Shown in pieces: positions 6,698 through 60,826 of a stretch of 64,000 nucleotides of DNA (the stretch's first letter is position 1; each line of letters begins with the position of its first letter). Source of the DNA: Raillietiella orientalis. Its lineage: Eukaryota. Below the pieces are notes generated by a model. The model was not told the origin of the DNA and made no database searches. It was given only the letters and a program-made list of their open reading frames with translations. Both the position numbers and the translations under genes were made by a program. The stretch spans positions 1 to 64,000 of the forward strand of contig JAYWIR010000087.1 of NCBI GenBank assembly GCA_036172245.1. Direction: 5' to 3'.

Positions 6698-6742
6698 CTG
6701 CCGGGTCACCGGTTGGCAGACCGGTACGGTCCACCGCGGCAG
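6698..6742 (-). other. Conserved 3' UTR nested stem-loop; representative copy
   Basis: Outer stem ctgccg..cggcag and inner accggt-ctgcca-accggt; covarying copies in E, J, L, M and K. Confidence 0.7.
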
Positions 6743-6811
6743 CAGGGGGAAGGGGAAAAACCAAAATACAAAACAAAAAAAAAAGAAAAGTTGGGAGGGT
6801 AAGGGAAGAGA

Positions 6812-9800
6812 TCACAGTTGATGGTGAGGCCGTTGCATCCTTTGCAGGATGCCGGCAAGCTCTTGCTGCATGCTTGGATCCAGGTGGGGCCATCGCGACG
6901 CCCTCCTCAGGAACTGGGAAGCTGGCTGGATGGCAACCTAGTCGCGTTGTCCTCCCGTAGCCTTGCTCCAGGCGACGACGATCCCGCGAATGCAGCACAG
7001 AGCTGCTAACGAGGCCGCTGGCCGAAGGGCGTCGGCAACAAAGAGGGCTTTCAGTGCGTTCCTGGGGTTGCCGCAGGGGATTCCGATGGCCGCGGCAAAG
7101 CGAAACCAAAGGGGCCGAAGGGCAACACAATCCACTAGCAGGTGGGGGAGGGATTCCCGTTACCCACACCTGACGCAATTGGGGTCCACCGCTCCCCAGG
7201 TCCAGTGGTATCGGAGGCCGTTGCAGGGGAGTCATCAGTGCTGCAACAGGAGAGCCGACTCCTGCCATTTTAAGGGGAGGGTGGAAGTGTTCATGAGATC
7301 CGGGGGCCACTTCAGATGTTCAATGGTAACATCGAGCAGCGCGCAAGAGCGCAGAAGTCCATTGGGAGGCGTACTCGGGGACGCAGCGTCTGTTAACTGG
7401 CCCGTCTTCCACTCTCCTATCTTCTTCTCCTTCCCGGAGATTGTAACTGAAACCTCCCACTTCGCTGTACGATCGCTGTCCAGATCTTCCATCAGGGAGG
7501 GCAGCGCAGCAGCGAGGGTGGTTCCTCCTGCCCACACTCTCTTCTTTGGATCCTCAAGGATCTTGCAGAGCATGCAACTTCTGTAACCCCCAAACAGGAA
7601 CCTTCGTTCCTGTTGGGAGCGTTGCATGCCTAAATGTCCCCACGTACGAACGGTTTCCTGCAACCACGAACTACCGTTCAAAGGACGACAGGTGAGCAAT
7701 CCTGGGTTTTTCCGGTACAACGCAGCCACCCTCCGTAGCTGGAGTCCGCATCGGTTGACGCGGCGACGGAGTGCAAGAAACGACGTCAGTCCCGTCTTGA
7801 TGGTGGCTTGCTAAAGAAGGAGACGTGCAGGGACGCACCAACAGGTGCACCACAACTCTGGAACGAGTGCCGACAATCGGAACTGCAGCTGAAGCTCCAG
7901 CCGCTCCAGCGTCAGGAGGCCCAGACCACCGTCCCGATGAGGAGCGCACAAGTCCTTTAAGCGGACTCGGGCCCTCCCGTTGCCCCAAACGGCGATACGG
8001 AGGAGGTCCTTGGTCCGCTTTTTAAGTCTCTCTGTGGGGGAGGCAAACAAAAAGCAGGGGGCGGAGGAGAGAAGCCGCGAACGTGTTCCAAACCGCGGCC
8101 CGTTGAGGCAGGAAAAACCTGCCGCCTCGGAACAAGCCGATCGCCGTCTCTGCTTTTTGGAGGCAGCCGGACCACGCTTCCGCAGGGGAGTAGTTCCCCG
8201 ACGGCACACCAAGGTACTTGAAGTACCTCACCGTGACGATCCATAAACGGACACAGTCCTGCTGCCCTGCCCACTCCGCACCAACTGGCATCACGGACGA
8301 CTTCGCCCTGTTCACCGTAAGTCCGGTTCCCCGATGCAGCAGGTCGAAAAACTTTTCGACCGCCGCAGCCGGGGTGGACATAGGGAGCAGCAGCAGAAGG
8401 TTGTTCGCGTACGCTGAAACCGCTGGCGTACCGGCGCAGTCGTGCGGCAGGTGCGCCAGAGTTCCCCTGTACGCGCTCAGTACCAACTCAAAGTACGTAC
8501 TAAAGAGCAAGGGGTTCAGGCTGTTTCCCTGCCGGATCCCACGCCGCACCGGCACGCCGTGCACGATCTGCCCGCTGAAAGTAACATTGATGAGCGCGTC
8601 GCGCCAGAAGGAGCGCAGATAGGCCACTAATGAGGCCGGGAAGCCCAAGCGTTCCAGAAGCTCTAGAAGGAGATTCTGGTCGACGCAATCGAATGCTTTC
8701 CTCAAATCGATTGCGACCGCAAAGGCTCCCTTCCCCACCCGACCATCCAACCCCTTGCCGGCGCAAGCACCGGAATTCCGGCTGCGCACCAAGCTCCTTT
8801 CATGTTGGAGCTCTAGCCAGGTAGAAGCGTGGAACAGTTTCGCCTCCATGCTTCGCCCGGGAACAGCACATGTCTGTTCCGGGCTGATGAAGGTGTTGGT
8901 AACCCGTCCCAACCTCTCTGCCCAAACCTTAGCCAGCAACTTGGCGTCCGCATTTACTATTGTGATGGGACGCCAGTTGTTCATGCTCCTCAGATCTCCT
9001 CCCTTTGAAAGGAGACGCACCTTTGCCGAACGAAACGAGGCGGGAACGTCACCTGTTTCGCGTATCAGAAAGGTAAGTTGCTGTACCAGGGGGGTAAGCT
9101 CAGCTGCGAAAGTTTAATAATACTCCGCGGGCAGGCCGACCTCCCCTGGAGCCTTGCGCCTCTTGAGCTTTCCGATGGCCGAGAGGATGTCGTCCATCGT
9201 GAAAGGGTCTTCGAGGGTCTTTCTCTGCTCCTCCCCGATCGCTGGAGCGCCTTCCGGAAGCAGAAGTCGTGAGACGTTCCTCTCCGGAGGTGCCCTGGCA
9301 TACAGGGAGGAGTAGTAACTCCGCAGCAGGCCGCGGATTTGGGCAGGTGCCCAGTGCTCCTGGCCCTGATCGCCCAGCAAGCTGGCCGATCCGGACTGCC
9401 AGGCTTGCCTCTCGGCTCCCGCTTTGTATTCCGCCAGCCTGCGGATGTCTGGGGTCCTGGCGTAACGGCGAGCCTGCAGATAGGCTCGTTTGTTACGTAC
9501 TTCGTCCCCAAATCTTGCAGGTAGGCGGTGCAGAGGGAACTGGTCGCAGAACTCCTGGACCGACCGCTTGAAGCGGTCCCAATCCTGAAGTGTCCGCAGC
9601 CTGAAGCTCCGTATGAACGTGCGGAGATGTTACGCCGCGTCCAAGAGCTTTAGCCAGTCCCCTGGGAGACGCCACGCTGACGAGGGGGGACCTCTGTCGC
9701 GCGGATGGATCTCGAGGACTAGCGGGCGATGGGCGGACAGCTCGCACGGTAACTTGCCGCGCCTTCCCACGCGAGGGCACTAGTGCTCGTCAAGGAACAC

Positions 9801-10394: not shown

Positions 10395-12070
10395 TACTGC
10401 TGGGAAGATTAAGGTGTGGGGGAGCCCGCCTCTTGCGAGGCGGACGGGATGTCCATGGGGGTTTCGGCCTTCTCAGGCACCTGAGGCACCTGTTCGGCCT
10501 CCACCCCCTACATCCCCTCCGTGTCCGTGCGAGGGAGTCTCTCGGGCGACGGGTCCCGAGAGTTTCCCACGCTCATGGCACCCTCGCTTGCGGAAGCAAT
10601 CTCTTCCCCTTCGACGGGGGAGACGAGCTTCCTTGGCTTTGTGGACTTACGTCCAACCTTCTTGCGCGGTGCCGTGGAAACGGAGGCTGCGTTTCCGGCC
10701 TCCACCTCGGGGTCGGAAGTGGGGGACTGCTGAGGGGAGGCCGGACGCCTTACGGCCTTCTTGCCAGCCTTGGAGGGTTCTGGCTGCAACGAAGCTGCCA
10801 GCTCCTCCGCGGCTCGCGCGAAGGCTACGTCATCGATGGTGGTGTCGATGACGGACGCTGCCGCCGGCTCCCTCCCCTCGCTGTTGATAGTGTCAACAGA
10901 GGGGAGGTCGTCGGTAGCGGCGAGTTCTTTCCGGCAGCGTTCGGCAACATCGAGAACGCGTTCGACAACGACGCTGCACTCTTTAATAATCGCGCTACCC
11001 TGCTCTTTCTTCTTCTGTAGGTAGGCGATTTTCTTTTCCATCCTCCTCTCCTTCTTTGATTTTTTGGCCGTTGCCACTTGCCACCTAGTCTCCTGGCCGG
11101 CTCCATCAACTTCTTCGGCGTTGGTCGCCGGAGTCTCGGGTGCGGCCTGGGTCTTGGGCGCGGGTGGCACAGCCTTCGCGGCAGCTTTCGCCGCAAGCCT
11201 TTTCTGCAGAAGCCGGGCGCGTTTTTAAAGGTTTCTCTTGGAAACCACCCGCACTGCTGCTTTTGGACACACCTCCCTCGTGTGGCCCATTGTGCCGCAT
11301 ACTTGGTACTGCACATTGGGACACCTCTTTTTGAGGTGGCCCGACGTATTGCAGAAGCCACAGTATTTCGGCTTCCCCACATACCAGAGGTCGACGGTTG
11401 CGCCTTCGACCACCAGTTTGTGGGGAAGAGTGCAGCCCTTTTGAACGCTCACGCGGGCAGCAGTGAGGCCGTGTAGCAGCCCCGCGTAGTCGTCGAAAGG
11501 ACTAACTTTCGTCCACTGCGCGTGGACCGTTCCGTATTTCTCCAACGCGGTGCGAACCTGCTCCTTGCGCATCCGCGCGGTACCACCTAACAGGTGGACC
11601 ACCATGCTGCGGTCCGCCTTAATAGGGAGGAGCCTGCGCGTCCTCATCACCACGGGGGTTTTAAGCAGTCGTTGGGCCAGCTCTGCTTGTTTGCAGATGA
11701 CCTCAACGTACTGACCCCCGCTGCGGATGGTCATAGCGCTGAGCTCCTCCTCTTTCACATCGAGAGCGCGCATGCCCTTCGAGAAGATGCGCGCGCTCTC
11801 TAAAGAATATAAATTGCCTACCTTGTAGAACAATGAGGGATTGTATCCCTCCTCTACATAGGCCGACAATTCCGCCGCGGCTGCAGGCGATGGCGCCGAC
11901 ACAACGGCTTTGCACGCCCGCGCTGCAGCGGGGACCGATTCTGTGGGGGCGGATGCCCCCACCTCCATCGCCTCCGGGAACGACGTTGTAGCCGCCCCCT
12001 GGGTCTCCATCGCCTCTGGTCGCGGCGTTGCCGCTGCCCCCTGGCCATTCCCGGTGGTCGCGTCAGGCAT
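10394..12070 (-). pseudogene. C ORF1, disrupted
   Basis: ORFs 11225..12220 and 10508..11170; zinc knuckles; TAATG overlap at 10392-10396. Confidence 0.88.
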
Positions 12071-12167
12071 CGCTGCCTGATCGACCACCGAACCACACGA
12101 CGCTTGTACTGGGGGAGACTTCCTGGCACGAGGAGCAGGGAGAAAACACGTCAACCCTGGAGCACGC

Positions 12168-15195: not shown

Positions 15196-15203
15196 AGTGA
15201 AGT

Positions 15204-17830
15204 TTTCACCCGGTCACGCCTAATGGTTTATTGCTAAACACTTTGTTTTCGCGGTACGAGGCACCGCTACGGCCATTAGTTCTTTGGTTCTGCCGGAAAG
15301 CCGGCTTGCAGGCCGACTTGACTCTCCTTGGCAGCGAAGGGTGCAGATGGTAAAAGCGAAAAGAAAAATAAAAGAAATAACCGAAAAGAAACTATTTGGA
15401 GGGCCGGGAAGTGATCCCAGCCCGCTGGAAGAAGATACCATCCTTTCCAGGATGCCCTCGAGGTCCCTCTTCATTGTTTGCAGATGGGACCAGCCGATCG
15501 CGATTCGCAGGTATCGACCAGCGTGTACGATGGGATCGCTGTCGCTGCTTTTTCTGTTGGCTGCGCTCCACGCGGCCACAATCCCTCGGAGGCATCAAAG
15601 TGCTGCCAGGGCTGAGGCTGGTGTCAGGGCGTGTCGCAAGAAGAGGAGTCTCATAACGTCTCTGGGGGTCCTGCCTACCTGCATTGAAGGATTCGCTGCA
15701 AAACGTTCCCACAAGGGCCGGAAGGCAGCGCAGTCCACTAACAGACGGAAGAGGGATTCCTTCTCCCCGCACACTGCACAGTTCTGTCCAACATTCCCCC
15801 ACGTCCAGCGGTGGCGGCGCGGGTTGCAGGGAAGACCCCAGTCCAACAACAAAAGCGCCGTTTCCTGCCACTTTAGGGGGAGGATGGATAAATCAATGAA
15901 CGACGGGGGTCACTCTAGTTTATCCGTCGGGATGCCGAGCAGCTCGCCCCTTCTCCGTAGTCTATGCGGGTGAACTCTTGGGTTCCCGGCGTGTGCCAGT
16001 TCCCTCTTGGTCCAACCAGTCAGATCCTTCTCTTTGCCCGCTATCCCTGGCAGGAGACTTGCCATCTCGGCTTCTGAATATTTTGTAGCGCCCTCCGTAG
16101 GAAGGGTAGCGCCGTGGTCAGTGGGGTCGTCTCCGCCCAAGTGCTTCTGGTGGGACACACGATCATGTTCCGCAGCGTGCAGCGGGTGTATATTCCGGTA
16201 CGCAGGCCGTTGCAGGATTCTTCACTGATATTGATTATCTTTGCCTACGTTCCAACTGTTTCTTCCAGCCATGCGATGGAGTTGGCGGGGCTGCAGGTCA
16301 TCCACGCGTTCTCCTTTGCGAGGGTGGCCATGCGTCCCAGGAGAAGTGCACATCTTTTTTTTCGGCCGGGGCACAGAAGAAAAGACGCAAGTCCTTCAGT
16401 CCCGGACACGCGTCTGGCGAGAAGGCGGGCCGGTACGCACCACGGGGTGTTCCACATTTTCGCTGCGATGGCTAGAGTACGCCACCGCAGGTGGGTTTCG
16501 ATGCGCTCCATCGTCAGTACGCTGAGACCTTCGTCCCGACGTGGAGCGCACAATTCTTTTAAAGGGGCACGAGGCCTGCCGCCGCCCCACAGGGCGATAC
16601 GTAAGAGGTCCTTCGTTCTTTTTCTTAATTCATGGGGTACGGGGCACGCAAAAAGCAGGAGGCGAATGAGGGGGGCCGCGAACGCGTTCCACACCGCTTC
16701 CCCTTTCCGGCAAGTGAAGCTTGCTTTCCAGGAACGGGCCGATCGCTGACTCCACAATTTGGAGACGGCCTGACCAGGCTTCTGACTGACAAAAGTCCCC
16801 CAACGGAACGCCGAGGTACTTTAAGTACCTGTCCGTGGGGATCCCCAGGCGGATTCAATAAGGTCGTCCTGCCCACGTAGCACCAACCGCAACCAGCGAT
16901 GACTTCGTCCTGTTCACCTGTAGTCCTGTCCCACGGCCCAACGAGTCGAAGTAATCTTCGAATGCCGGAGCCGGGGCGGACATGGGCAGCAGGAGCAAAA
17001 GATCGTCAGCGTACGCCGACACGGCCATCGTACCTGAACACGTGCTCGGCAAAGCAGCCAATGTCACCCTGTATGCTCTCAGCACCAGTTCGAAATAGGA
17101 GCTAAAGAGTAGGGGACTCAGGCTGTCGCCATGCCGCATGCCGCGCCTTACCGCCACGCCGGACACGTGCTGTCCTCTGAAAGACAAGTTAATGATCGCA
17201 TTGCGCCAGCAGGCGCGCAGGTAAGCCAGTAAAGTGTCCGGGAAGCCCATGCGATCCAGGAGCTCCAGAAGGAGTTCCTGGTTCACGCAATCGAATTCTT
17301 TGTGCAGATCGACTGCGATCGCTAAAGCCCCCTTTTCTTCCCGGCAGTCCCTTGTTTGCCGCGCTGGCGTTTCCAAATTAAGTTTGAAGTCATTTCGTTC
17401 TTTTCTCTTCTCTTTTTCTTCGTATTGTAGATTAAACCATGTGCTGGCGAAGAACCAGTTCGCTTCCATGCTTCGCCCGGGAACAGCGTACGTCTGTTCC
17501 GAGCTGACGAATCTGTCAGCTACCTGTCCTAGTCGTGCAGCAGACATTCCGGCCAGCAACTTGTCGTCGGTGTTTACTATCGTGATCGGATGCCAGTTGC
17601 TTTATTTCCGGAGGTCTTTTCCTTTAGGTAGGAGCCTCTCTTTGGCTGAGCGAAACGAGGAAGGAACTTCGCCTTGGTCTCGGATCAGCGATTTCAATTT
17701 GAGCACCAGGGGGGTCAGCTTTGCAACGAAGCACTGAAAGAACTCCGCCGGTAGGCCGTCCTCTCCTGGCGCCTTACGCCTTTTGAGCCTTTTAATCGCG
17801 GTGATGATTTCCCCGGTTTCTAATGCCGGG
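15204..17830 (-). mobile_element. Element E: 3' half (RT, CCHC, 3' UTR, terminal hairpin)
   Basis: ORFs 16855..17559, 16245..16757 and 15595..15852; 3' end aataaaccattaggcgtgaccgggtgaaa (reverse complement). Confidence 0.87.
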
Positions 17831-17837
17831 CTTTGCT

Positions 17838-20396: not shown

Positions 20397-21555
20397 TTGT
20401 CACCTGGGTGCGCCGGGGCGTTTATTATAAACTATCCGGGAACAGGGTTCCCGGACAAAAGGGAAAACAAGAGACGAAGGGGGTGGGATCCCCGACAAGC
20501 AGGTCGGTATGCCGAAAGTCTGGAACGGAAGGGAAGGGACAACAAACACACTACTATATAAAAAAATAAAAGAAAAATATGGAGGGCAGGGGACAGGGGT
20601 CTTTGGTAAGTCCGTTCCTTCCTTTCAAAACCGGCGATGGATGCCGGCGATCTCTCTCCTTACTCCTTGCGGCAGATGGGCCCACTGGGCAGCCGAAGAC
20701 ATGTTTGTGCTGGCTAATCCGCTAAGCTGACGAGGGATGGCCAGCTTCTCCAACTCTCGGTGGGCCTTGTCGATGGCGCGGGTGCAACACATGGTTGCAA
20801 CGACAGCACCCAAATACAGGCCGCCTGGCGTGAAGAAGCGGCGCATCAAGTCTCCTGCGGTGTCCCCCTGGTGCAGGAGAGCTGAGTACAGCCTCCGCTA
20901 GAGTCCTAGAAGGGCACCGCAGTCCAGGAGCAGGTGCGGCAGCGTTTCCACTTCCCCGCACCGCTTACAGTTTGGGGAGAAAACTCCCCCGGAAACAAGG
21001 TTCGTGCGCTGGTTGGAGTGAAAACCCCAATGCACCAGCATAATCACATCCTGCTTCCATTAAAGGCGGAACAAAGAAGTGTTTAAACACGAGGGAGGGA
21101 CCACAAGATCTTCGGGGGGCACACTCAAGTGTTCGCTCCACCGAAGGAGTCCCTTCGGTATGTGGCGAGGCGAGGCGGCATCTGCCAGCTCGTAAGTCCT
21201 CCAGACGCCAATAGGTCGCGTTGTTCCTGCGATGGTGCAAGCGACCTCCCATCTCGCCGGTTCGCAACTGTCATCTCCTGCCTTGAGGGCTGACAGTGCG
21301 TCGGCGAGATGGGTGACGGCCAGGCGGGTCCACTTCCACTGGCAGTTGCACACCTCATCCACCGTGCAGCACGGGGAGAGGTGAGCGCAAAGAAGTTCCA
21401 GGAGGGAAACGTCCTGGTGCTTTGCCCAGCCATGCATTGGTTAGTGCCGCCAGGCTTCAAAGTTCGTTGGGCGGCAGGAGATCAAAATACATGAAATGTC
21501 GCGTGGCGTATTCGAAGGTTCACCACTGCAAAACAGCTTGCTGGTTACCAGCTCC
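20397..21555 (-). mobile_element. Element I: 3' end (ORF2 C-terminus and 3' UTR), A/F-like
   Basis: RWEVACTIAG, LLRWSEHL, CxRCGE..HLLLDC; 3' end aataaacgccccggcgcacccaggtga (reverse complement). Confidence 0.85.
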
Positions 21556-21559
21556 ATGC

Positions 21560-23556
21560 CGGAGAGGTCCTTCCGATGCGCGGGGATGGGAAACGAACAA
21601 AAACAAAAAGAAACAAAAAGTTCAAATGTGGGGGGGGAACAAAAGTTGTAGGGTTGGGAGGGCGGGGAAGGGATCACCGTGCGCGTGGACAGGTCCTCTA
21701 GATCCTGTTCAGGATCCGCACAAGCTGAGTCCTTTCAGCGCCTAAGTGCCGCCACTTGCAGACACTGCGCGCGAAAACGCGAGTCCAGTGTAAGGCGTTG
21801 CCGGTTAGCTGACGCCTGCTTCTGGTGGCGTTCCAAGCTGCCACTATTCCTCTGATGCAGCAGAAAACTGCTACACTAGCCGGCAGCGACAAGGCGTCAC
21901 TACAGAAGAGGCGCCTTAAAACGTCCTTTGGGCCGCATCCGCGCAAGTCCAGGATCGGCGCGAGACGATCCCACAAAGGGCGGATGGCTGTGCACTCAAG
22001 GAGAAGGTGGGGGATTGTTTCTTCTGCCCCACACCGGTCACAATCAAAATCCACAGCCCCACGAGTGGTGTGGTGCAGGCGTGCTTTGAATGGTAATCCC
22101 CACAGTACCACAAGAAACGCCACATCCTGCGATTTCAGGGGTAGGGATGCACTGATCCAGGACGCTGGGGGCCACTTCATCTCCTCCGGAGATAGTCCGA
22201 GTACCTCCCCCAGCGTCGAATTCCGTTGGACGGGACACTCGGCGTCGCAGCGCCAGCTAGCTGCCGAGATGTCCACGCCATTATCGATTGTGTACTGCTG
22301 ATTATAGTGCAGGACACGGTCCATTTCCCCTGCTCGCTACTGTCCCTCGCATTCTCAAGGAAGGGCAGCACTGGGGCGAGGGAGGTTATCAAGGCCCACA
22401 GGTGGTTGTCGTGGGACTGCACGATCTTCTGCAGCGTCCAGCGGGCGTGCCTTTTCACACAAGTGTTCCTTGTGCCCGCCGGAACGTAGATCTTTTGCAA
22501 GGTGGAGACTGACTCGTGCAACCAGGCGGAGTAGTTCCCTAGGAGGCAGGAGATCTAGGCGTTCTCCCGATCCGCAACGAAGATGCGTCGCAGCATTGAG
22601 CCACAGTATGCTCTTCTGCAGACGCGCGCAGACAGAAACGACAAAAGTCCGCCGATTCCGCAGGCTTGTTGGGCCAGGAGGCGTGCTGGAACGCATTACG
22701 GCGTGTCCCACAATTCGGCCGCGAGGGCGAGAGTCCTGAATCCAAGTTGCAATTCCATGGGCTCCAGAGTAAGTACGCCAAGTCCACCGTTTTCACGTGG
22801 AGCGCACAAGTCTTTGAGCCTCACACGGGACCTCCCTTTGCCCCAGAGGACTGTCCTCAGGAGGCCCGCCGCTTGTTTTCGAATATAATAATGGGCGGGT
22901 TAAACAAAGAGTAGGGGGCGAAGGAGGAAGGCCGCAAACGCGTTTCACACAGCGGCTTGTTCCTGCAAGTAGAACTTGCTTTCTTAGAACGGACTAATCG
23001 CCAACGCTGCCTTTTGGAGACAGTCGGAACATGTTTCTGCTGCGCAGAAGTCCCCCAACGGAACGCCAAGGTACTTGAAGCATCTGCCCGTGACGATCCC
23101 CTAGAGGATCCAATCCGACCGTCTAGGCCACGCAGAACCCACAAAGACCATAGACGACTTCGCCCTGTTCACCCACAGGCCCGTCCCGCGGCGCAGCAAC
23201 TCGAATAATTCCTCGAGCGCACTAGCTGGAGTGGACCCGGGAAGCAGCAGCAGAAGGTCGTCTGCATAGGCCGCCACGGCAGGCGTGCCAGCACACGAGT
23301 TCGGCAGAGCTGCCAGAGTTACCCTGTATGCCCTCAGCACCAACTCGAAGTATATGCTGAAGAGCAAGGGGCTCAGGCTGTCACCCTGCCAAATGCTGCG
23401 GCCTACTAGCACGCCGTACACGTGCCAACTGATGAAACCAATATTTATGTACGCGTTGCGCCAGCAGGAGCGCAGGTAAGTCCGGAGCACGGACGGGAAA
23501 CCCATGCGTTCTGCGAGCTCCAGAAGGAGATCCAGGTCGACGCAGTCGAACGCCTT
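21560..23556 (-). mobile_element. Element H2, downstream part (from KAFD to the 3' UTR)
   Basis: ORFs 23101..23505 (YADD) and 21698..22324 (CDRCGAEETIPHLLLEC); continues on the other side of J. Confidence 0.87.
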
Positions 23557-23570
23557 GCGTGCTCCAGGTT

Positions 23571-23580
23571 GGACGTGTTT
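23571..23580 (+). promoter_or_regulatory. Conserved 5' leader motif GGACGTGTTT (DPE-like internal promoter element); representative copy
   Basis: Also at 18320, 42307 and 48221, and on the minus strand at 6569, 12153 (variant), 37626 (variant) and 58703. Confidence 0.6.
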
Positions 23581-23653
23581 TCTCGGTGCTCCTCGTGCTA
23601 GGAAGTCTCCCCCAGTGCAAGCGTCGTGTGGTTCGGTGGTAGATCAGGCAGCG

Positions 23654-25330
23654 ATGCCAGACGCGACCACCAGGGATGGCCAGGGGGCAGCGGCAACGCC
23701 GCCCCCAGAGGCGATGGAGAGCCAGGGGGCGGCGGCAACGTCGCCCCCAGAGGCGATGGAGGTGGGGGCATCCGCCCCCACAGAATCGGTCCCCGCTGCA
23801 GCGCGGGCGTGGAGCGCCGTTGTGTCGGCGCCATCGCCTGCAGCCGCGGCGGAATTGTCGGCCTATGTAGAGGAGGGGTACAATCTTTCATTGTTCTACA
23901 AGGTAGGCAATTTATATTCTTTAGAGAGCGCGCGCGTCTTCTCGAAGGGCATGCGCGCTCTCGATGTGAAAGAGGAGGAGCTCAGCGCTATGACCATCCG
24001 CAGCGGGGGTCAGTACGTTGAGGTCATCTGCAAACATGCAGAGCTGGCCCAACGACTGCTTAAAACCCCCGTTGTGATGGGGACGCGCAGGCTCCTGTTT
24101 ACTCCAGCGGACCGCAGCATGGTGGTCCACCTGTTAGGTGTTACCGCGCGGATGCGCAAGGAACAGGTTAGCCCCGCTTTGGAGAAGTTTGGAACGGTCC
24201 ACGCGCAGTGGACGGAAGTTAGTCCTTTCGACGACTACGCAAGGCTGCAACACGGCCTCACTGCTGCGCCCGTGACCGTTCGGGAGGGCTGCACTCTTCC
24301 CCACAAACTGATGGTCGAAGGCGAAACCGTCGACCACTGGTATGTGGGGAAGCCGAAAAATTGTATCTTCTGCAATACGTCGGGCCACCTCAAAAAGAGG
24401 TGTCCCAATGTGCAGTGCCAAGTATGCGGCACAATGGGCCACACGAGGGAGGTGTGTCCAAAAGTAGCAGTGCGGGTGGTTTCCAAGAGAAACCTTAAAA
24501 AACGCGCCCGGCTTCTGCAGAAAAGGCTTGCGGCGAAAGCTGCCGCGAAGGCTGTGCCACCCGCGCCCAAGACCCAGGCCGCACCCGAGACCCCGGTGAC
24601 CAACGCCGAAAAAGTTGATGGAGCCGGCCAGGAGACTTGGTGGCAACTGGCAACGGCCAAAATATCAAAGAAGGAGAGGAGGATGGAAAAGAAAATCGCC
24701 TACCTACAGAAGAAAAAAGAGCAGGGTAGCGCGATTATTAAAGAGTGCAGCGTCGTTGTCGAACGCGTTCTCGATGTTGCCGAACGCTGCCGGAAAGAAC
24801 TCGCCGCTACCGACGACCTCCCCTCTGTTGACACTATCAACAGCGAGGGGAGGGAGCCGGCGGCAGCGTCCGTCATCGACACCACCATCGATGACGTAGC
24901 CTTCGCGCGAGCCGCGGAGGAGCTGGCAGCTTCGTTGCAGCCAGAACCCTCCAAGGCTGGCAAGAAGGCCGTAAGGCGTCCGGCCTCCCCTCAGCAGTCC
25001 CCCACTTCCGACCCCGAGGTGGAGGCCGGAAACGCAGCCTCCGTTTCCACGGCACCGCGCAAGAAGGTTGGACGTAAGTCCACAAAGCCAAGGAAGCTCG
25101 TCTCCCCCGTCGAAGGGGAAGAGATTGCTTCCGCAAGCGAGGGTGCCATGAGCGTGGGAAACTCTCGGGACCCGTCGCCCGAGAGACTCCCTCGCACGGA
25201 CACGGAGGGGATGTAGGGGGTGGAGGCCGAACAGGTGCCTCAGGTGCCTGAGAAGGCCGAAACCCCCATGGACATCCCGTCCGCCTCGCAAGAGGCGGGC
25301 TCCCCCACACCTTAATCTTCCCAGCAGTAA
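23654..25330 (+). pseudogene. J ORF1, nearly intact (premature TAG ending at 25216)
   Basis: ORF 23504..25216; CIFCNTSGHLKKRC and CQVCGTMGHTREVC; TAATG at 25328-25332. Confidence 0.9.
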
Positions 25331-28911: not shown

Positions 28912-29101
28912 TCCCTTCCCTTACCCTCCCAGCTTTCTTTTCTTTTTTGTTTTGTTTTTTGTTTTTTCTTCCCCCTTCTGCCTGCTGCCGTGGTGGACCG
29001 TACCGGTCTGCGAACCGGTGACCAACCAGGCTCTGTGTTTCTTCGTGCGTGGCTGGAGCAATGGTCCAGCCACCGCACGTCTTTGTAATAGTTTATTTTA
29101 C

Positions 29102-29130
29102 AATAAACGCCCCGGCGAAATCCGGGTAAA
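29102..29130 (+). terminator. Conserved 3' terminus: AATAAA plus CCCGG-loop-CCGGG hairpin; representative copy
   Basis: Ten element 3' ends share it (about 4635, 6600, 15207, 20401, 29102, 32114, 48177, 54088, 58727, 61283). Confidence 0.75.
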
Positions 29131-40500: not shown

Positions 40501-42298
40501 CCATCCCCTTTCGCTACCGGGGAGTGCCACGCCGGGCTGCGTCCCGGTGTCCCGGCAGTTCCGGTATTGCGTGGCCGTCAGTGGGGCCTTGTACCACGTT
40601 CTGTAGGCCACAATCTTCGATGGCTACGATAGCCTTTTCGGAGAACCGGCTGCCGCGCGTGTGACCATTTAGAAGGATAGTGGGCCTCCCCACAAACAAG
40701 AGGTCAATGACCAGGACGTAGACCTCTGGTACGTGGGGAAACTTCGCTTTTGTGGCTACTGCAATGCAGTAGGACACTTGCGCAAGCGAGGCCTGAACAT
40801 TGTGTGCCACTTAAGCGGGAAGAAGGGCCACGTGCGCCGCTTATGCCCTAAACGTGTCACTCCAAAGCCGCCTGCCGCAAAGAAAGCGCAAGCAAAACGC
40901 GGAAAACTGGTCGAAAGGCCAAAAAGAGATACTGGTTGGCAACAGCCGCTAGCCCTTGTTCCTCCCACACAGGCGTCGAAAGAAAAACCATCCGAAGACG
41001 CGGGAGTTCAAAACGGCTGGCAGTTGGTAAAGGCCAGCAAGGAGAAAAAGGTGCCCTCCGCGGAACCCGCGAAAGCGATAAAAAAGACAGCCGGCAAGGC
41101 GAAAAAACCTGGGCCGCGCTCGAAGACCATGCGGGAATGTACGGTGGCACTGGAGCGCATAGCCGTTCCCGAGACTGCCACTCAGGGCGACGAGCCTTCC
41201 CTCGCCGCTTCCGCCGTCCCCGAGGTTCGCGACGACAAACCCTCTGTTTGCACAAAGGGTCTGCCGCGCGAAGCGCGCGTTGAAAGCGAAGACGTCGCGT
41301 TCGCGCAGGCGGCGGAGGAGCGCGAGGCCTCGCTGGCCGAGCGTGAGAACTCCTCACGCAAGGCCGTGCGCAGGCCGACTCCGCCGAAGAAGGCCCCCCG
41401 CAGGTGAGTGCGACTTGGGGGCCGGAAGTGCATCCTCCTTGTCGGAGGCACCCCCCGGAAGAAGAGACGCAAGTCCCAAAAGCCGAGGAGGCGCTTCCCC
41501 TCCACGAGCGAGGAAGAGAAGCAGGAAGCCGACGGCAGCGTGGGAATCCAGGAGGGGGAAATCCCACGCGCGGAAGTTGTCGAGCAGGTCACCCCCATGG
41601 AGGAGGGTGAGCAGGGGGGCGAAGTCCTCCTTGCCGGCGCAAACCCTGTACAGCCCACCCTTATGGAGGAAGGCCAACAGGTAGGCGCGACCCCACTGGA
41701 GGATGACCCGCCCGACGCGCGTCACCGATGGAGCAGGGGAACCAGGTGATCGAGGCACCTGTCCCTCCTGCTCCACCTAGCGTCCCACCCCAACAGGTGG
41801 CGGACGCCGCAGAGCCGCATTTCCAGGAATGACACCTGGGCTCGCCAGTCGCCGTCGGATTCGCGCCGCCTGTTGCAACGTCAACGGGCTGCGCGACGAC
41901 GGTAACAGGCGAGATAGGGCCTACACCCTGCGTGAGCTCGACCTGGCCCTGCAGCAGGAGATCAACGTGATCACCGTGGCAGACGCACAGGAGATCGAGA
42001 CGATCGCATGGGGTCGGTTGTATTGCCGATGCAACCTCCACAAAACCTGCTGGGTCTCGTTCTTCGTGAAGCCGGCCATCAACGCTGCCGTGAAGGGCGT
42101 GGGCTCCGATGACGACGGTCGGGTCATTCAGCTGGTTCTCAGCTGGTCCGACTCGATCGAACTGATCGTCACGAATGTGTACGCCCCCAGCGGTAAACAG
42201 TGATACAGAAACCGCACCAGGCTGCTGAAAACCCTGAAGCGCGACTGGCTGGCGGACACGAACGTGCGGAAGGCTCACCTGATAGCGGGAGATTTCAA

Positions 42299-45200: not shown

Positions 45201-48200
45201 CGGTAGAGACTTTCTGCAGACCCGCACGTTTTCGAGACGCGCGGATGTCGAACGTCTCGCGGAGTACAAGGCGAGGGCCGAGCGCCACGTCTGGCAGTCC
45301 GGAGCAGCATGCCTGCTGGACGACAAGGGCAAGGAATGTTCGGCTTCAGCCGAAGTATGCCGCATTGTGAGACGCTACTACTCCTCGCTGTACGCGGAAT
45401 CTCCAACGGAGGATATTCTCTCTGAGATACAACTGTGTCAGGATGATCGTGTTGTCGGCGAGAAGGAACGCGAAGGACTCAACGAGCCCTTAACGGCGGA
45501 TGAATTTTCGTCTGCCATTGCTGTGCTGAAGAGACGGAAGGCGCCATTCGAGGATGGGCTACCTGCAGAGTTTTATCAGTGCTTTGAAGTGGAGCTCATT
45601 CCCTTGATGCTGAGACTAGCGACGGTGATGAGTGAATCCGGGAATGTCCCGGATTCCTTCCGCTCAGCGAAGGTGCGTCTCCTGCCGAAAGGCGAAGACT
45701 TGCGTGAACTTAACAACTGGCATCCCATCACCTTGGTGAACTCCGATATCAAGTGGTATTCCAAGCTGGGGGTCGTGCGGTTACGAAGTATCGCGGAATC
45801 TGTGGTGAGTCCGGAACAAACCTACACGGTTCCGGGACGATCCATGGAGGCGAACATCCTCTTCGCGCGTACATGGATGCAGCTGCAGGAAGTTGTGACG
45901 AAGCAAAGCCAGGCTGCTGCGAAAGTCACTGCCGCAGGCAAGAAGAACAGGCGCCGACAGCAGGAGGGAACGCCATGCGCCTTGGCGGTCGCGGTCGTTC
46001 TCCACAAGGCGTTCGCCTGCGTAAACTAGAAGCTGCTCTTGGAGCTTATAGAAAGCCTTGGGTTTCCGGCGCAACTCCTGCTGTATTTGCACCCGTGCTG
46101 GCGCCAGGCGCTAACCTGCATCACTTTCAGCGGCTGCTGCGTGTATGGTATTCCCGTTCGTAGGGGCATCCGAAAGGGCGACAGCTTAATCCCGTTGCTC
46201 TTCAGCATCTTCTTTTCGTTGGTGCTAAGAGCATACAGGCTGACGCTGTCTCACTTGCCAAGCTCCTGCCCGGGAACGCCAGCTGTGGCCGCCTACGCTT
46301 ATGACCTGCTTCTTCTGCTCCCCATGTCCACCCCGGCGTCTAGTGTCGAAAATTTGTTCGACCTCATTCGTCGGGGAGCTTGTGTGAGCGTGAACAGAAA
46401 GAAGAGCGTGGTCGTTCCTGTCGGTACGTCGTGGGAGGGGCAGTCCGACTGGATCCGCTTGGGGATCTCCACGGGCGGGTACTTTAAGTACCTTGACGTT
46501 CCGTTGGGCGCTTACGGCGCAGCCGTCGCGTGGGCGGACTGTCTTAAGAAAGCACAGTTAGCCATCAGCCCGTTCTTAAACAGCAAGTTTACATTGCAGG
46601 AACAAGCGACTGTTTGAAACACTTTTGTGGCCCCCCTCCACCGTCCCCTGTTTTCTGTTTTGGGCCCCCCCTATGCGGCGAAACAGAGGGCTAAACGCCT
46701 GCTCAGGAACGCTCTCTGTGAACCGGCGAGATCCAGGAACCGCCTTAAAGATTTGTAAGCTCCGCGTCGGGATGCTGGTTTGAGTATCCTGACAATGAAG
46801 CGAATCGGACTGCAGGTGCAGTTCCTACTGCTGGCACTGTGTACCCAGCTATGGACATCCCCCCTGTGTGTGCCAACCCGCGTACTCCTGCGAAGATGCG
46901 CCGGCAGCGGAGGATTTCTCTCGCTTCTGCCGGGCACTCAATACAGGAAGCGGGGTTTCGGGTTTCCATTGCGGCAGTTGACCGCACTTCTGGAAGCTCA
47001 CACGTGGATCTCCTTTCGCCCAATGAACTATGAAGCTTGGCGGCAGAAGTCCGTTAAATCCTGAGCGGCGTTACAAGAAATACGCCCTGAATATCTTCGC
47101 CCTTTGCGCCAATTTTTTCCACGATTCTTGGAAGAAGTACTGCAGGACGAGGTGAGGTTTTCAACCCTGGCTGCCACGCCTCTTGCCGCAGCTCTGTCTG
47201 CCCTCAGGGCAAGTAACGACAGTTACCAACCAACGAGGTGGGAGGATTTCTGCACGATAGCGGGAAAAACAAAACTTCTTGGCGCCTCGAAGGCGAGTGA
47301 GTTGGCGGACGCCGCCACTCCTCGTGTTACTGCAAAGGGACTCCTCCGGTGGGCAGAAGAACTTGCTGTCACCCCCGAAGAACTTGCAGTGTCTCCACAG
47401 TGCATTGACAGTTTGCTGCTCCCCCTTGCTTGGAAACAAGCCGTGCTGCTTTTCGTTCACTGGAATTTTCAGTGCAACGAGCGTTGGCATCGGGACTCCG
47501 GTGGACTTGCTTCTCCGAACTGCGTTCGGTGCGGATCGACGGAGTCGATTCCGCACCTACTTCTGGACTGCGCTGTCCTACAAGGACTGTAGCGTAGGCT
47601 GGCAACAGCACTAATGCATCCCGTGGACACCGCTAGAGACTTGCGGCGACGATTCTTCACGCCGAGAGGGCTGTCACTAAGCGCAAGGATTGCAACCATT
47701 GGTTGCATACGCGCGATAGTTTCCGTCCGCAAGGCGTTGGTAATCAAAGGGCAGCACCAAGAGGTTACCAGCAAAGCATCCTTCTACATGGGAGCATCCG
47801 CTAGATGGCCTCATTTGACAGAGGAGACAAAAAGGAATCTCGCCGCATTACACCGCCGGTTTACACACGCTCAGCAGCGGCCAACCCGGTGATCATTGCC
47901 CTATCCTCCATAAACTATTTTTGTATTTTCTTTTTACACCCGCGTCCCCATAGGCACCGGAACATTCCAGGTGCTCATCGTAAAAATCCTGGTGAGTACG
48001 GAGCCTATCCAAAAACCCGTTACCCTTCCCTCCAGTTTTTGATTTTTGTTTGTTTCCCCTAATTCCTTCCACGCTGCGAGCGGTTTGTTTACCTGTCCTG
48101 CGTTTCAATAATTTTTCTATGTTCTCTGTCGTTCTCTTGGTTGGGGACATTGTCCCTGACCAGTTTATTATTATTAATAAACGCACCGGCGTGACCGGGT

Positions 48201-48205: not shown

Positions 48206-48212
48206 ATTTCAA

Positions 48213-51200: not shown

Positions 51201-54117
51201 AGGTCTGGCAGTCCGGAGCAACATGCCTGTTGGACGACAAGGGCCAGGAATGTTCGGCCCCAGCCGAAGTACGCCGCATTGTGAGACGCTACTACTCCTC
51301 GCTGTACGCGGAATTCCCGACAGAGGATATTCTTTCTGAGATACTCCTGTCTCAGGATGCTCGTGTTGTCGGTGAGGAGGAACGCGAACGTCTCAACGAG
51401 CCCTTCACGGCGGATGAATTTTCGACTGCCATCGCTGGGCTGAAGAGACGGAAGGCGCCAGGCGAGAATGGGCTCCCTGCAGAGTTTTATCAGTGCTTTG
51501 AAGTGAAACTCATTCCCTTGATGTTGAGACTCGCGACGTTGATGAGTGAATCCGCGAATGTCCCGGATTCCTTCCGCTCAGCGAAGGTGCGTCTCCTGCC
51601 GAAAGGCGGAGACTTGCGTCAACTTAACAACTGGCGTCCGATCACATTGGTGAACTCGGACGTCAAGTGGTATTCCCAGCTGTGGTTCGCGCGGTTAGGA
51701 AGTATCGCGGAATCTTTGGTGAGTCCGGAACAAACCTACGCGGTTCCGGGACGATCCTTGATGGCGAACATCCTTTTCGTGCGTACATGGATGCAGCTGC
51801 AGGAAGTTGTGGCGCAGCAAAGCCAGGCTGCTGCGAAAGTCACTGCCGCACGGAAGAAGAACAGGCGCCGACGGCAGAAGGGAACGCCAGGCGTCTTGGC
51901 GGTCGCGGTCGATCTCCACAAGTCGTTCGACTGCGTAAACCAGAAGCTGCTTTTGGAGCTTATGGAACGCTTTGGGTTCCTTGCGCAACTCGTGCTGTAT
52001 TTGCGCGCGTGCTGGCGCCACGCGCTATCCTGCATCACTTTCAGCGGCTGCCGCGTGTATGGTATTCCCGTTCGTAGGGGCATCCGACAGGGAGACAGCT
52101 TAAACCCGTTGCTCTTCAGCATCTTCTTTAGGTTGGTGCTAAGAGCACACAGGCTGACGCTGTCTCACTTGTCAAGCTGCTGCCCGGGAACGCCAGCCGT
52201 GGCCGCTTACGCTGATGACCTCCTTCTTCTGCTCCCCATGTCCACCCCGGCGTCCAGTGTCGAGAATTTTTTTGACCTGATTCGTCGAAGAGCGGGCGTG
52301 AGCGTGAACAGAGAGAAGAGCGTGGTCGTTCCTGTGGGTACGTCGTGGGAGGGGCAGTCCGACTGGATCCGCATGGGGATCCCCACGGGCGGGTACTTTT
52401 AGTACCTTGGCGTTCTTTTGGGCGCTTTAAGCGCACCCTAAGCGTGGGCGGACTGTCTTCAGCAAGTAGAGTTGGCCATCAGTCCGTTCTTTAACGGCAA
52501 GTTTACCTTGCAGGAACAAGCGACTATTGGAAGCACCTTTGTGGCCCCCCTCCTCCGTCCCCTTTTTTTTGTTCTGAACCCCCCCTATGCAGCGAAACAG
52601 CGGGCTAAACGCCTGCTCAGGAACGCTCTCTGGGGTCTGGCGAGTTCCAGGATCCGCCTTAAAGATTTGTTAGCTCCCCGTTTGGATGCTGGTTTGGGTA
52701 TCCTGACAATGGAGCGAATCGGACTGCAGGTGCAGTTCCGACTGCTGGCACTGTGTGCCCAGCTATGGACATCCCCCTGTGTGTGCCAGCCCGCGTTCTC
52801 CTGCGGAGATGCGCCGGCAGCGGAGGATTTCTCTCGCTTCTGCCGGGCACTCAATAAAGGAAGCGGGGTTTCGGGTTTCCATTGCGGCAGTTGACCGCAC
52901 TTCTGGAAGCACACTCGTGGATCTCCTGCCGCCCAATGAACTTTGAAGCTTGGCTGCAGGAGTCTGTTGAATCCTGGGCGGCGTTCCCAGGAATACGCCT
53001 TGAAGATCTTCGCCCCCTGCGCCAATTTTTTCCACGATCCTTGGAAGAAGTACTGCAGGACGAGGTGAAGTTTACTAGCCTGGTTGGCACGCCTCTTGCC
53101 GCAGCGCTGTTTGCCCTCAGGGCAACAAACGACAGTTACCAACCGGCGAGGTGGGAGGTTTCCTGCACGATAGCGGGAAAAACCAAACTTCTTGACGCCT
53201 GGTAGACGAGTGAGTTGGCGGACACCGCCACTCCTCGTGTTACTGCAAAAGGACTCCTCCGGTAAGCAGAATTACTTGCTGTCACCTCCGCAGAACTTAT
53301 AGTCCCTCCACAGTGCATGGACAGCTCGCTGCTTCTTCTTGCTTGGAAACAAGCCGTGCTGCTTTTCGTTCACTGGGGTTTTCAGTGCAACGAGCGTTGG
53401 CATCGGGACTCCGGTGGACTTGCTTCTCCGAACTGCGTTCGGTGCGGATCGACGGAGTCGATTCCGCACCTACATTTGGACTGCGGTGTCCTACAAGGAC
53501 TGTGGCGTAGGCTGACAACAGCACTAATGCATCCCGTGGACACCGCAAGAGACTTGCTACGACGATTATTCACGCCGAGCGGGCTGTCACTAAGCTCAAG
53601 GATTGCAACCAGCGGTTGTATACGCGGGATAGTTTGCGTCCGCCAGGCGTTGCTAATCAACGGACAGCACCAAGAGGTAATCAGCAAAGCATCCGTCTAC
53701 ATGGGAGCATCCGCTAGATGGTGTCATTTCATAGAGGAGACAAGAAGGAATCTCGCCGAAATACACCGCCGGTTTACACACGCTCAGCAGCTGCCAACCC
53801 GGTGATGATTGCCCTACCCTCCATTTACTGATTTTGTAATTTCTTTTAACACCCGCGTCCCCATAGGCTCCGGAACATTTCAGGTTTTCATCGTTTAAAT
53901 CCCCGTGAGTACGGAACCTAACCAAAACCCGTTACCCTTCCCTCGAGTTTTTGATTCTTGTTTGTTTCCCTTCATTCCTCCCATGCTGCGAGCGGTTTGT
54001 TTACGAGGTCTGGGTGCCGGTTATTTTTCTATGTTCCCTGTCGTTCTGTTGGTTGAGGACATTGTCCCTGACCAGGTTATTATTATTAATAAACGCTTCG
54101 GCGTGTCCGGGTGATAA
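48213..54117 (+). mobile_element. Element F2: full-length LINE, head-to-tail with F1
   Basis: Flanked by atttcaa (48206-48212 and 54118-54124); ORF1 48291-50213, ORF2 50213-53805. Confidence 0.93.
50213..53805 (+). pseudogene. F2 ORF2; contains the longest open stretch in the window (647 aa, APE through RT YADD)
   Basis: ORF 50459..52402 with NVYAP, LDHVF, NWRPITLVN, KSFDCV, RQGD and YADD; stops elsewhere. Confidence 0.92.
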
Positions 54118-58712: not shown

Positions 58713-58725
58713 GACTTTCGGCGAT

Positions 58726-60826
58726 GCCACCTGGTTCCGCGGGACGTTTATTAAAAACATTTCAGCAGTGAATACAGAACGTGGTTCAAGGCCCCACTGA
58801 CAGCCACGCAATACTGAAACTGCCGGGACACCGGGACGCAGCTCGGTGTGGCTCTCCTCGGCAGTGGGGGGGGATGGGTGAGAAAACAAAAAAAAAATAA
58901 AAGAGAAAAACAGACCACAAAAAAAGTTTGGAGGGCCGGGAAGGGATCACAGAAAACTGCTGGGAGGGCCTGTCCTTTGCAGGATGCCTTCTAGTTCCAT
59001 TTTCAGTTTTCCAAGATAAGGCCATTTGGTAGCTCTCTGCAGGAAGCGAGAAGCATACTCGATGACATCCCTCACGATGCAGTCTTCATCTTCGGCATCA
59101 TTCCAGGCCGCCACGATAACACGAATGCAGAAAAGTGCTGCAAGGGCTGCGGCTGGGATGAGGGCGTCCCGCACAAAGACAAGACTGAAGACACATCCAA
59201 CATTGCCACCATTTGGTATACCTAGTCCCGATTTAGGACGATCCCAAAAAATGCGGACGGCAGAGCATTTAACTAATCGGTGGGGGAGCGGCTCCTGCTC
59301 CGCATATCTGGCACACGCAAGATTAACTCTTCCCCGCGTATAGTGGAAGCGACGCGCGTTGAAGGGTAGACCCTAATGTAGCCACAGAAGCGCCGATCCT
59401 TGCCACTTCAGGGGAAGAATCCTGGATTTAACTAGAACCGGAGACCACTTCAGGTCATGTAATCGAATGCCGAGCAGCTCGCCCCATCTTCTTAATTCAC
59501 GCGAATGGAGACTAGGGGTCGTTGCATCTGTCAACTCTCCCATGGTCCAGCCGCTCATCATCTTCTCTCTGCCTGCGATACGGCAGCAGACTTGTCACCT
59601 TGGCTTACGACTTTCGTGAACTGCCCTTTGGAGGAAGGGCATCGCCGTAACAAGGGGTGTGCCTTCCGCCCACGTGCAACTCGGTGGAAATACAAGAATT
59701 TCACGGAGAGTTCGGCGGGCGCAAAAGCCGACTCGCAGGCAGTTCATCCGGTCTTCGCACCTCTAGTTCTGCTTGGCCCAGGTGCCAGCAGTCTCTTCCA
59801 GCCAAGCGGAGGAGCTGGCGGTGCCACAAACCATCCAGTCGTTCTCCTTTACCAGGGTTGCCATGCGGCCGAGCAGTAGACCGCATCTTCGAATCTTCAG
59901 GTGAGGGCACAGAAGAAACGATGCGAGTCCTTCGCAGCGGGACACAAGCCTGGCCAGGAGGTGGGCCGGAATGCACCAAGCGGTGCTTTACATCTTCGCT
60001 GCGATGGCGAGGGTTCGCCATTGCATCTGGATTTTCACGCGCTTCAGCGTCAAGATACTGAGACCGCCGTCCCGACAAGGAGCGCACAAGTCCTTCAAAG
60101 GGACTCGGGGCCTCCCCTTGCCCCAAAAAGCTATGCGGAAGAGGTCTTTTGTCCGCTTTTTAGATCCCACGGCGGCGGAAAGCAAGGGACGGAGGATGGG
60201 GGCCGCGAAGGCGTTCCAAACCGCGGCCCGTTCTGGCAAGTGAAACTTGCCTTCCAGGAACGGGTCGATCGCCGTCTCGACTTTTTGGAGGCAGCTGGAA
60301 CACGCTTCCGCAGGGGAGAAGTCCCCTAACGGCACACCGAGGTACTTGATGCACCTCACCGTGGGGATCCCCAGACGGACCCATTCCTGCTGCTCTGCTC
60401 ACGCCGCACCAACTGGCATCATGGACGACTTCGCCCTGTTCACCGTAAGTCCGGTTCCCGGATTCAGCAGGTCGAAGAACTTCTCGACCGCCGAAGCCTG
60501 GGAAGACATAAGAATCGGCAGCAGAAGGTCGTCCGCGAGCGCTGAGACCGCAGGCGTTGCGGCGCATCCATGCGGCAGGTGCGCCAGAGTTTTCCTATAC
60601 GCTCTCAGTACCAACTCAATGTAGGTACTGAAGTGCAAGAGGCTCAGGCTTTCTTATTGCAGGATTCCACGTCGCACCGGCACGCCGTGAACAGTCTGCC
60701 GCTGAAAGTAAGATTGATTTGCGAATGGCGCCTGCTGGAGCGCAAATAGTCCTTTAATGAGGGCGGGAAGCCCAAGCGTTCCAAAAGCTCCAGCAAGAGA
60801 TTCTCGTCGACGCAATCGAATGCTTT
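58726..60826 (-). mobile_element. Element K: 3' half from KAFD to the terminal hairpin
   Basis: KAFDCVD, LADD, GKFHLPERAAVW; 3' end aataaacgtcccgcggaaccaggtgg (reverse complement). Confidence 0.85.

Follow-up and report, generated by a model that had tools for sequence, protein, structure and literature searches.

A CUGC-loop hairpin, probably functional, in the 3' tails of L1/Tx1-like retrotransposons from Raillietiella orientalis

Introduction

A structured signal in the 3' tail is an established concept for long interspersed nuclear elements (LINEs) and is known from LINEs other than those described here. In this study, we analyze a hairpin with a CUGC loop core that lies in 3' untranslated regions (UTRs) belonging to L1/Tx1-like LINEs from Raillietiella orientalis, found in a stretch of 64,000 nucleotides (GenBank assembly GCA_036172245.1, contig JAYWIR010000087.1, positions 1 to 64,000, forward strand), which we call the window. 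An earlier note, made by a model from the letters alone, had described the hairpin as a covarying structure shared across families and had proposed it as a candidate recognition element for the ORF2 protein (ORF2p), by analogy with the 3' stem-loops of stringent LINEs.

Several described systems are relevant to this proposal. Within the L1 clade, the stringent LINEs given in a review are two plant and algal lineages, the monocot-1a lineage (LINE1-1_ZM with the short interspersed nuclear elements [SINEs] ZmSINE2/3) and Chlamydomonas L1-1_CR, both inferred from sequence (PMC3472496); the monocot-1a tail is described as a covarying stem with a conserved UCU loop within the last 45 to 50 nt (PMC3472496, PMC3747384). 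In the L2 clade, the stem-loops of eel UnaL2 and zebrafish ZfL2-1 and ZfL2-2 have a GGAUA loop and a single-base bulge and adjoin a terminal UGUAA repeat (PMC1636434, PMC4176376); the region of the ZfL2 protein between the endonuclease (EN) and the reverse transcriptase (RT) is reported to bind the stem-loop, which is shared by LINEs at about 60% RT identity (PMC4176376). In the R2Bm 3' UTR, tight binding is reported to depend on two stem-loops together, of which the one at the 3' terminus places the template end (PMC11194090). For human L1, a basic surface of ORF2p is described as holding an Alu RNA stem upstream of the priming site (PMC10830416), and 3' stem-loops have been reported in both human L1 and Alu (PMC5135761). 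Outside the LINEs, the epsilon element of hepatitis B virus (HBV) is an RT-bound bulged stem-loop, the CUGUGC hexaloop of which is described as a C1-G5 pseudo-triloop (PMC1636360).

Our analysis, which is based on the 12 LINE 3' UTRs of the window, indicates that the CUGC hairpin is a real and probably functional RNA hairpin, best supported for its inner stem, and that it forms one part of a larger tail.

Results

Six full copies of the motif lie on the sense strand of their own LINE, in the 3' UTR past the C terminus of ORF2 and behind a pyrimidine tract, 79 to 94 nt ahead of AATAAA wherever AATAAA survives. They are copy C (6698 to 6742, minus strand), which has the outer stem, the bulge, the inner stem and the loop CUGCCA; copy J (28985 to 29029, plus; loop CUGCGA), the outer stem of which is decayed, as the earlier note had reported, with three of six pairs broken; copy L (32211 to 32255, minus; CUGCGC); copy M (40514 to 40558, plus; CUGCGU), the element end of which is lost past the second hairpin; copy K (58820 to 58864, minus; CUGCGU), with one A-C mismatch in the inner stem; and copy E (15290 to 15334, minus; CUGCAA), which has the most divergent stem. 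All six stems and loops were present where the note had placed them and as it had quoted them. Its letters are retained here, and A, F, G, N, O and P have been added: the copy list holds for the original six, and the inner hairpins of F, A and P, the decayed N and O, and the heavily decayed whole motif of G had been overlooked.

RNAalifold gave a 16-bp consensus for the six copies: an outer stem of 6 bp, then a single unpaired base on the 5' side, 3 bp more, a 5' bulge of 6 nt, the 7-bp inner stem and the CUGCNN hexaloop. Across the six copies, 88 of 96 cells were paired (91.7%), a value matched by none of 500 alignment shuffles, and both partners had changed in four pairs, a count reached by 63 of the 500 shuffles; the inner stem accounts for three of these four. 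Since such a shuffle ignores the relatedness of the copies, neutral evolution was simulated instead on the ORF2 tree, from a paired root and keeping only the runs that matched the identity of the data (a custom simulation, not R-scape). Inner-stem pairing was retained in 40 of 42 cells, compared to 28 to 30.5 under neutrality (P ≤ 0.00035), and the inner stem showed five two-sided pair types, compared to about 0.7 (P ≤ 0.0004). The outer 9 bp were paired in 48 of 54 cells (P = 0.05 to 0.10). As neither C/J nor M/K is an independent pair at the UTR level, the test was rerun on four lineages, in two selections; inner-stem pairing was then 27/28 and 26/28 (P ≤ 0.0009), and the outer stem had one two-sided pair (P = 0.17 to 0.30). 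Although the outer stem is conserved, it lacks independent support because only that one pair covaries.

A covariance model built from C, J and L recovered K (E = 3.6e-7), M (E = 1.3e-5) and the E copy (E = 0.0055), with no other match below an E value of 0.9, compared to 1.1e-5, 2.1e-5 and 0.15, respectively, when the same model was used without structure; these E values are rough, and the held-out test is only partly independent. Selection on an RNA structure is supported for the inner stem, where pairing has been kept far above the level expected from neutral drift. The covariation claimed by the earlier note is thus borne out for the inner stem, by a tree-aware P value of <0.001 and by the recovery of K, M and E, and in the outer stem is limited to that single pair.

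Over 14 pairs of copies, the motif was 70% identical, compared to 49% at fourfold-degenerate ORF2 sites; the flanks were 54% (upstream) and 38% (downstream) identical without gaps and 70% and 58% identical with gaps. The bare hairpin is common: at least five of six pairs around CTGCNN were found 30 times in the window, against 21.5 ± 4.6 times in 30 shuffles; the signal of the motif derives from its position and homology. With all six pairs there were eight hairpins, five of them copies from the earlier note, compared to 2.4 ± 1.5 in shuffled sequence.

The bulge had been called purine rich. Four of its six positions are indeed purines; its most conserved letters, however, are pyrimidines, with C at offset -9 in all six copies and at -10 in five. 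The bulge (e.g., 28996 to 29005, plus strand, in J) repeats the 5' arm at a five-base period and, in 6/6 full copies, is able to pair with the same three bases of the 3' arm (GGY), and in copy E the bulge and the 5' arm carry the same C-to-U change. This repeat might point to a slipped pairing register or to an ancient duplication. In C, a different hairpin was favored, one formed when the bulge displaces part of the 5' arm and loop; M, K and E are not predicted to fold this way, and it was therefore not adopted as the conserved state. Among the sequencing runs listed, one DNA run carried the sequence at a small share, and no RNA run did. In a comparison of 331 bases around the J tail with sequencing runs, six contig pieces could be fitted and most of the UTR was without cover. 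One contig, from run X1, matched 39 of 42 bases of the J motif and then read CGGCAG, which is the 3' strand of the outer stem and is missing from J, before continuing into unlike sequence; this match is a single contig in which the identity of the differing letters is not visible.

The window contains 12 ORF2 C termini, which a tree of the last 700 coding bases divided with a support of 100 into clade I (C/J, L, E, M, K and G) and clade II (A/P, N/O and F). Between the clades, nucleotide identity at the ORF2 3' end was 43 to 51%; within them, C and J were 96% alike and A and P 91% alike. Clade II carries the inner hairpin as well, located at the corresponding place in the UTR and lacking the outer stem, in three copies that are intact or nearly so and two that are decayed. 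Copy F (20492 to 20507, minus) has five Watson-Crick pairs (5/5) and the loop CUGCUU. Copies A (4524 to 4539, plus) and P (61405 to 61420, minus) each have the loop CUGCGU and 4/5 pairs, the broken pair being a different one in each. Copy N (48091 to 48111, plus) retains the loop CUGCGU and has lost most of the stem, and copy O (54003 to 54023, plus) has the loop CUGGGU and three of five pairs. Full-motif scores were weak in this clade (F, E = 4; P, E = 5.8), and the assignment of F, A and P accordingly depends on position and loop. Copy G (21535 to 21584, minus), a heavily decayed full-motif homologue without the loop, is weak evidence, with a covariance-model E value of 1.2 and a score reached by 0.9 to 1.75% of 2,000 random 100-nt windows. 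N and O are 91% identical overall, yet they differ at 10 of 21 bases right at the hairpin, and both carry a second CTGCGA 24 nt upstream.

In the 11 copies that have a loop, CUG at positions 1 to 3 was invariant (11/11), with C4 in 10/11 and G5 in 8/11, and the five inner pairs were paired in 47 of 55 cells over both clades (P ≤ 0.0022). In the 10 copies with a surviving end, the loop lay 76 to 106 nt ahead of AATAAA. The statement that the structure is shared across families thus gains a sister clade for the inner hairpin, while the six copies on which it was based reduce to four independent UTR lineages of one clade. The extension by outer stem and bulge is restricted to one clade of the two, which makes the inner hairpin the core. 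By analogy with epsilon, C1 and G5 of its loop may pair to give a pseudo-triloop; no compensatory change was seen for this pair.

The inner CUGC hairpin is the first, and most upstream, of four tail hairpins. The second, H2 (29049 to 29073, plus, in J), has a long stem and a 3-nt loop; 10 or 11 of its 11 pairs were present in C, J, L, F, N and O (6 of 11 copies), and at least 10 were found in 4.5% of 3,000 random 90-nt stretches. In the third, H3 (29091 to 29108, plus, in J), GTTTATT pairs with the AATAAAC polyadenylation signal, with six or seven of the seven pairs possible in 7 of 10 ends, and as modeled this hairpin could mask the signal. Because most insertions are antisense, GTTTATT is also an antisense AATAAAC that the transcript of a host element could read. 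The terminal module consists of AATAAAC and a GC hairpin, H4. In J it spans 29102 to 29127 (plus) within a 3' terminus at 29102 to 29132 that continues with five A residues and the target duplication, and in C it spans 6601 to 6625 (minus) within a terminus at 6596 to 6625. It is also found in A (4635 to 4659, plus), E (15208 to 15232, minus), F (20402 to 20426, minus), L (32119 to 32143, minus), N (48176 to 48200, plus), O (54088 to 54112, plus) and P (61285 to 61309, minus), and with a one-base gap in K (about 58729 to 58752, minus), the tenth end. Nine matches to the module pattern were found in the window, compared to 0.15 expected by chance.

No poly(A) tail was present at any of the 10 intact ends: at most five A residues follow the terminal GC hairpin, and then the target begins, so that the tail ends 24 to 31 nt past the start of AATAAA. 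The CUGC motif is about 100 to 135 nt from the 3' end of the element. It is H4, then, that occupies the position of the stringent-LINE stem-loops, and the CUGC hairpin does not adjoin the RT start site; the H4 module keeps its sequence in both clades and, by position, is the better candidate for the priming signal. The analogy with stringent LINEs drawn in the earlier note accordingly holds for the absence of poly(A), the covarying stem and the conserved loop, and fails in that the motif is far from the 3' end and another hairpin is terminal.

The window as a whole is a nest of broken non-LTR retrotransposons, one inserted in another, with 57% G+C and no depletion of CpG; it holds no intact element. 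Pfam matches were obtained in five of nine scanned fragments, the domains lying on separate fragments: Exo_endo_phos (APE), RVT_1, zf-RVT (below the cutoff) and zf-CCHC. The order of domains along the elements gives two open reading frames (ORFs), with ORF2 encoding an APE endonuclease, an RT and a C-terminal zinc finger, and this layout is that of L1-group non-LTR retrotransposons. In a profile comparison of the RT region, human L1 ORF2p was nearest (E = 3e-28; R2-type entries, 2.5e-18) among the clades with solved structures, to which the comparison is limited. Observations that bear on a possible placement in the Tx1 group are the insertion of J and C at the same KAFD site, the 11-nt duplication of J, and a relative at about 32% identity that had been automatically named Tx1.

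Element J (23557 to 29132, plus) is full length but broken, with an ORF1-like gene, an APE-RT-zinc finger ORF2 and a 3' UTR; it lies in antisense orientation within the KAFD codons of an RT belonging to another LINE, between copies of the 11-nt duplication (23546 to 23556 and 29133 to 29143) that are identical at 9 of 11 positions. Insertions into the ORF2 of other LINEs recur at particular sites (23546 to 29143; 6584 to 6595, minus; 4665; 54118; 61279), with C and J at the RT KAFD codons and A and P in the APE domain, all four antisense, and N and O sense in the GDFN codons; repeated insertion at one site gives head-to-tail pairs with the target duplication between them. M and K were 89 to 91% alike in the part of the UTR that holds the motif, 84 to 91% alike in the UTR core, 78 to 96% alike in part of the RT region (M, 38947 to 39447), but 58 to 64% alike in the final 400 coding bases; such a mosaic may have arisen by interfamily recombination. 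ORF1 proteins of the window were about 33 to 58% identical between families. The EN-RT linker is arginine rich and conserved in both clades (49 to 76% identity), which is compatible with an RNA-binding role but is not a test of binding. Toward the 5' ends of elements of both clades, a GGACGTGTTT motif is found about 15 to 45 nt past the start (about 6570, minus; 23570, plus; 48220, plus; 58700, minus; 18320, plus) and is a possible internal promoter element. The ORF1-like genes also contain in-frame tandem repeats with units of 57 and 42 nt (30646 to 30813, 11963 to 12044 and 23679 to 23761).

Searches were extended beyond these copies. An Rfam scan of the whole window, a check that the earlier note had named, gave nine matches at an E value of ≤10, none on the motif and all below the gathering score; the families searched include ribozymes, the IRE and HBV epsilon. 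All six significant full-motif matches in the window follow an ORF2 end. A word-indexed protein search gave four distant matches at 25 to 26% identity; in an exhaustive search, the only close relatives were P0005 (59%) and P0049 (55%), both from JGI/IMG contigs, the others being 26 to 38% identical, with named relatives from fish, turtle, pseudoscorpion and alga at 30 to 38%. P0005 is an uninterrupted ORF2 stretch of 619 amino acids, and less decayed members of the group therefore exist. A metagenome scan with the ORF2 C-terminal alignment gave 232 pattern matches, none of which was confirmed. The terminal-motif pattern had no match in viral contigs and nine in metagenome contigs, none of the nine with LINE protein similarity or a pyrimidine-rich UTR, and these were taken as chance. 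Our literature search, which lay outside most subscription papers and Repbase, found no description of the CUGC hairpin or a structured Tx1 3' UTR, and the passages of PMC4494074 that it covered contain nothing on Tx1 UTR structure.

Discussion

The place of the hairpin, its sense strand, the maintained inner pairing, the fixed CUG start of the loop and the tail-less end are direct observations. The explanation that we favor, to which we would give about an even chance, is that the CUGC(G)N hairpin, a cis-acting RNA structure inherited within an L1/Tx1-like LINE group, provides the upstream handle for binding in a tail that has two parts, as in R2, and is recognized by the element's own ORF2p. 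In such a tail, ORF2p would bind the CUGC hairpin through its stem shape and loop bases and thereby hold its own RNA, while the terminal hairpin would position the 3' end so that target-primed reverse transcription begins at the poly(A) junction, a division of labor like that of the two R2Bm stem-loops. Because copies start right behind the terminal hairpin, and not inside poly(A), recognition of the template is probably structure dependent; the lack of poly(A) at every intact end likewise makes priming of the stringent type plausible.

Several points weigh against this explanation. Distant families share the loop, whereas ZfL2-1 and ZfL2-2 discriminate each other's stem-loops, and a host factor would fit this sharing equally well. 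No partner SINE sharing the tail was seen in the window, where all 12 copies follow an ORF2 end. On four lineages, only two or three inner pairs had changed on both sides (P = 0.06 and 0.01), and the bare CTGCNN hairpin is not rarer in the window than in shuffled sequence. The 16-bp fold lies 1.4 to 7.9 kcal/mol above the minimum and is the lowest-energy fold in none of the six copies, with an inner-stem probability of 0.00 in C and L and of 0.66 to 0.99 in J, M, K and E. The non-Watson-Crick cells of the six full copies comprise seven G-U and six A-C, about equal numbers, so that a strand asymmetry is not demonstrated. Finally, N and O are without the full stem, and the structure was derived from the same sequences on which it was later tested.

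A host RNA-binding protein could bind the hairpin and act in 3'-end processing, stability, export or germ line localization of the LINE RNA. The loop is nearly invariant in elements whose ORF2 ends are only 43 to 51% identical in DNA, the U-rich UTR keeps the hairpin at a fairly constant 76 to 106 nt from AATAAA and beside a hairpin able to mask that signal, and pseudo-triloops have been described as a general protein-binding motif (PMC1636360). We nevertheless consider this explanation rather doubtful, given that no Rfam family matches the motif and that four L2-clade LINEs at about 60% RT identity are reported to share one stem-loop bound by their own ORF2p (PMC4176376), so that a shared hairpin needs no host factor. 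It is unlikely, too, that the hairpin is a packaging signal for the ORF1 protein (ORF1p), with CCHC zinc knuckles binding the exposed loop G and loading the RNA into a ribonucleoprotein. Gag-type zinc knuckles bind loop guanines, zf-CCHC was matched in one of four scanned ORF1-region sequences, and loop G3 is invariant in 11/11 copies; yet the loop is fixed although the ORF1 proteins are as little as about 33% and at most 58% identical between families, and no paper on the SART1 ORF1 knuckles and a stem-loop was found in the literature search.

If the motif were instead a functionless GC-rich quasi-palindrome, template-switch repair could keep its arms complementary and mimic covariation. Several arms are self-palindromic (ACCGGT), thermodynamic folding does not favor the model in C and L, the antisense strand is about equally stable in most copies, and the 10 of 21 differences between N and O suggest a mutation hotspot here. 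Repair of the arms, however, would not conserve the loop, in which CUG is invariant, nor does it fit with a motif more conserved than synonymous sites and with shared G-U pairs that persist at two positions; we therefore regard this as very unlikely. Least credible of all is that the hairpin is part of a ribozyme or pseudoknot or that the loop, through base pairing to target DNA, directs the choice of target. One KAFD target does have CGCAG, the loop complement, just ahead of the junction, but CTGCG was present on either strand in 2 of 18 empty target-like sites, compared to 9% of random 30-mers, and the guide role was rejected. In J, L, M and K, pairing of the loop with CGUGG downstream is possible, but this CGUGG belongs to the H2 stem or arm, and two or three G-U would be required; no pseudoknot or kissing-loop partner for bulge and loop was found at a consistent place across copies. 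For a ribozyme, there was no Rfam match, and in nine regions searched on both strands with rough descriptors of our own there was no HDV-like or twister-like match and one lone hammerhead core word, in the coding end of M.

A more elaborate scenario, which we put forward as speculative and improbable, is that a single RNA handle is common to LINE families that target one another, such that the ORF2p of any family can copy the RNA of any other, stringent for the group and relaxed inside it. This handle would combine an epsilon-like pseudo-triloop with a stem able to slip by five bases, and would act with the poly(A)-signal-masking and terminal hairpins to set the start of copying; the stem could slip because the bulge repeats the 5' arm and can pair with the same 3' GGY in all six full copies.

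In this improbable scenario, R2-like two-part recognition would exist in a Tx1-like L1 group, and the handle would provide a portable tag for site-specific insertion. The shift of L1-type elements from recognition of a structured tail to recognition of poly(A) still calls for an explanation. A tail-less group of the L1/Tx1-like type, in which a covarying handle is defined and many families have differing target sites, would make a compact test system. It could reveal which ORF2p surface reads a loop and if such handles are exchangeable among site-specific integrases.

The CUGC hairpin would appear to work like the 3' stem-loops of stringent LINEs. Its closest case inside the L1 clade is the monocot-1a lineage. 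Like the tails of that lineage and of L1-1_CR, it is an L1-clade 3' hairpin with a covarying stem and conserved loop letters, and in both cases function is read from the sequence. Unlike the monocot-1a tail, it has a CUGC loop core instead of UCU, lies about 100 to 135 nt from the end with three more hairpins downstream, and belongs to elements that have no poly(A) and no SINE seen, whereas SINEs share the monocot-1a tail. R2 elements have a single ORF and an endonuclease of the restriction-like type, and the elements here are two-ORF APE elements; the two systems are alike in having two separated stem-loops, those of R2Bm described as showing little conservation of primary sequence, and unlike in that the roles proposed here are inferred and those in R2 were measured. 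With the L2-clade stem-loops, the hairpin shares an upper and a lower stem with a bulge between them and a conserved loop, but it has a hexaloop, a 6-nt bulge and no terminal repeat and is far from the end; because it does not adjoin the priming site, it is not classed as an L2-type terminal stem-loop. Its likeness to HBV epsilon is one of shape only, the loop here being CUGCG(U/A/C) with G5 in 8 of 11 copies: there is no homology and no Rfam match, and epsilon is a 5' element for protein priming. As for human L1, the likeness lies in an L1-type ORF2p that holds an RNA stem upstream of the priming site, and the human protein is the best solved relative; the human element, however, needs a poly(A) tract and its ORF2p binds a stem without a conserved loop, whereas the elements described here have no poly(A) and have kept the loop.

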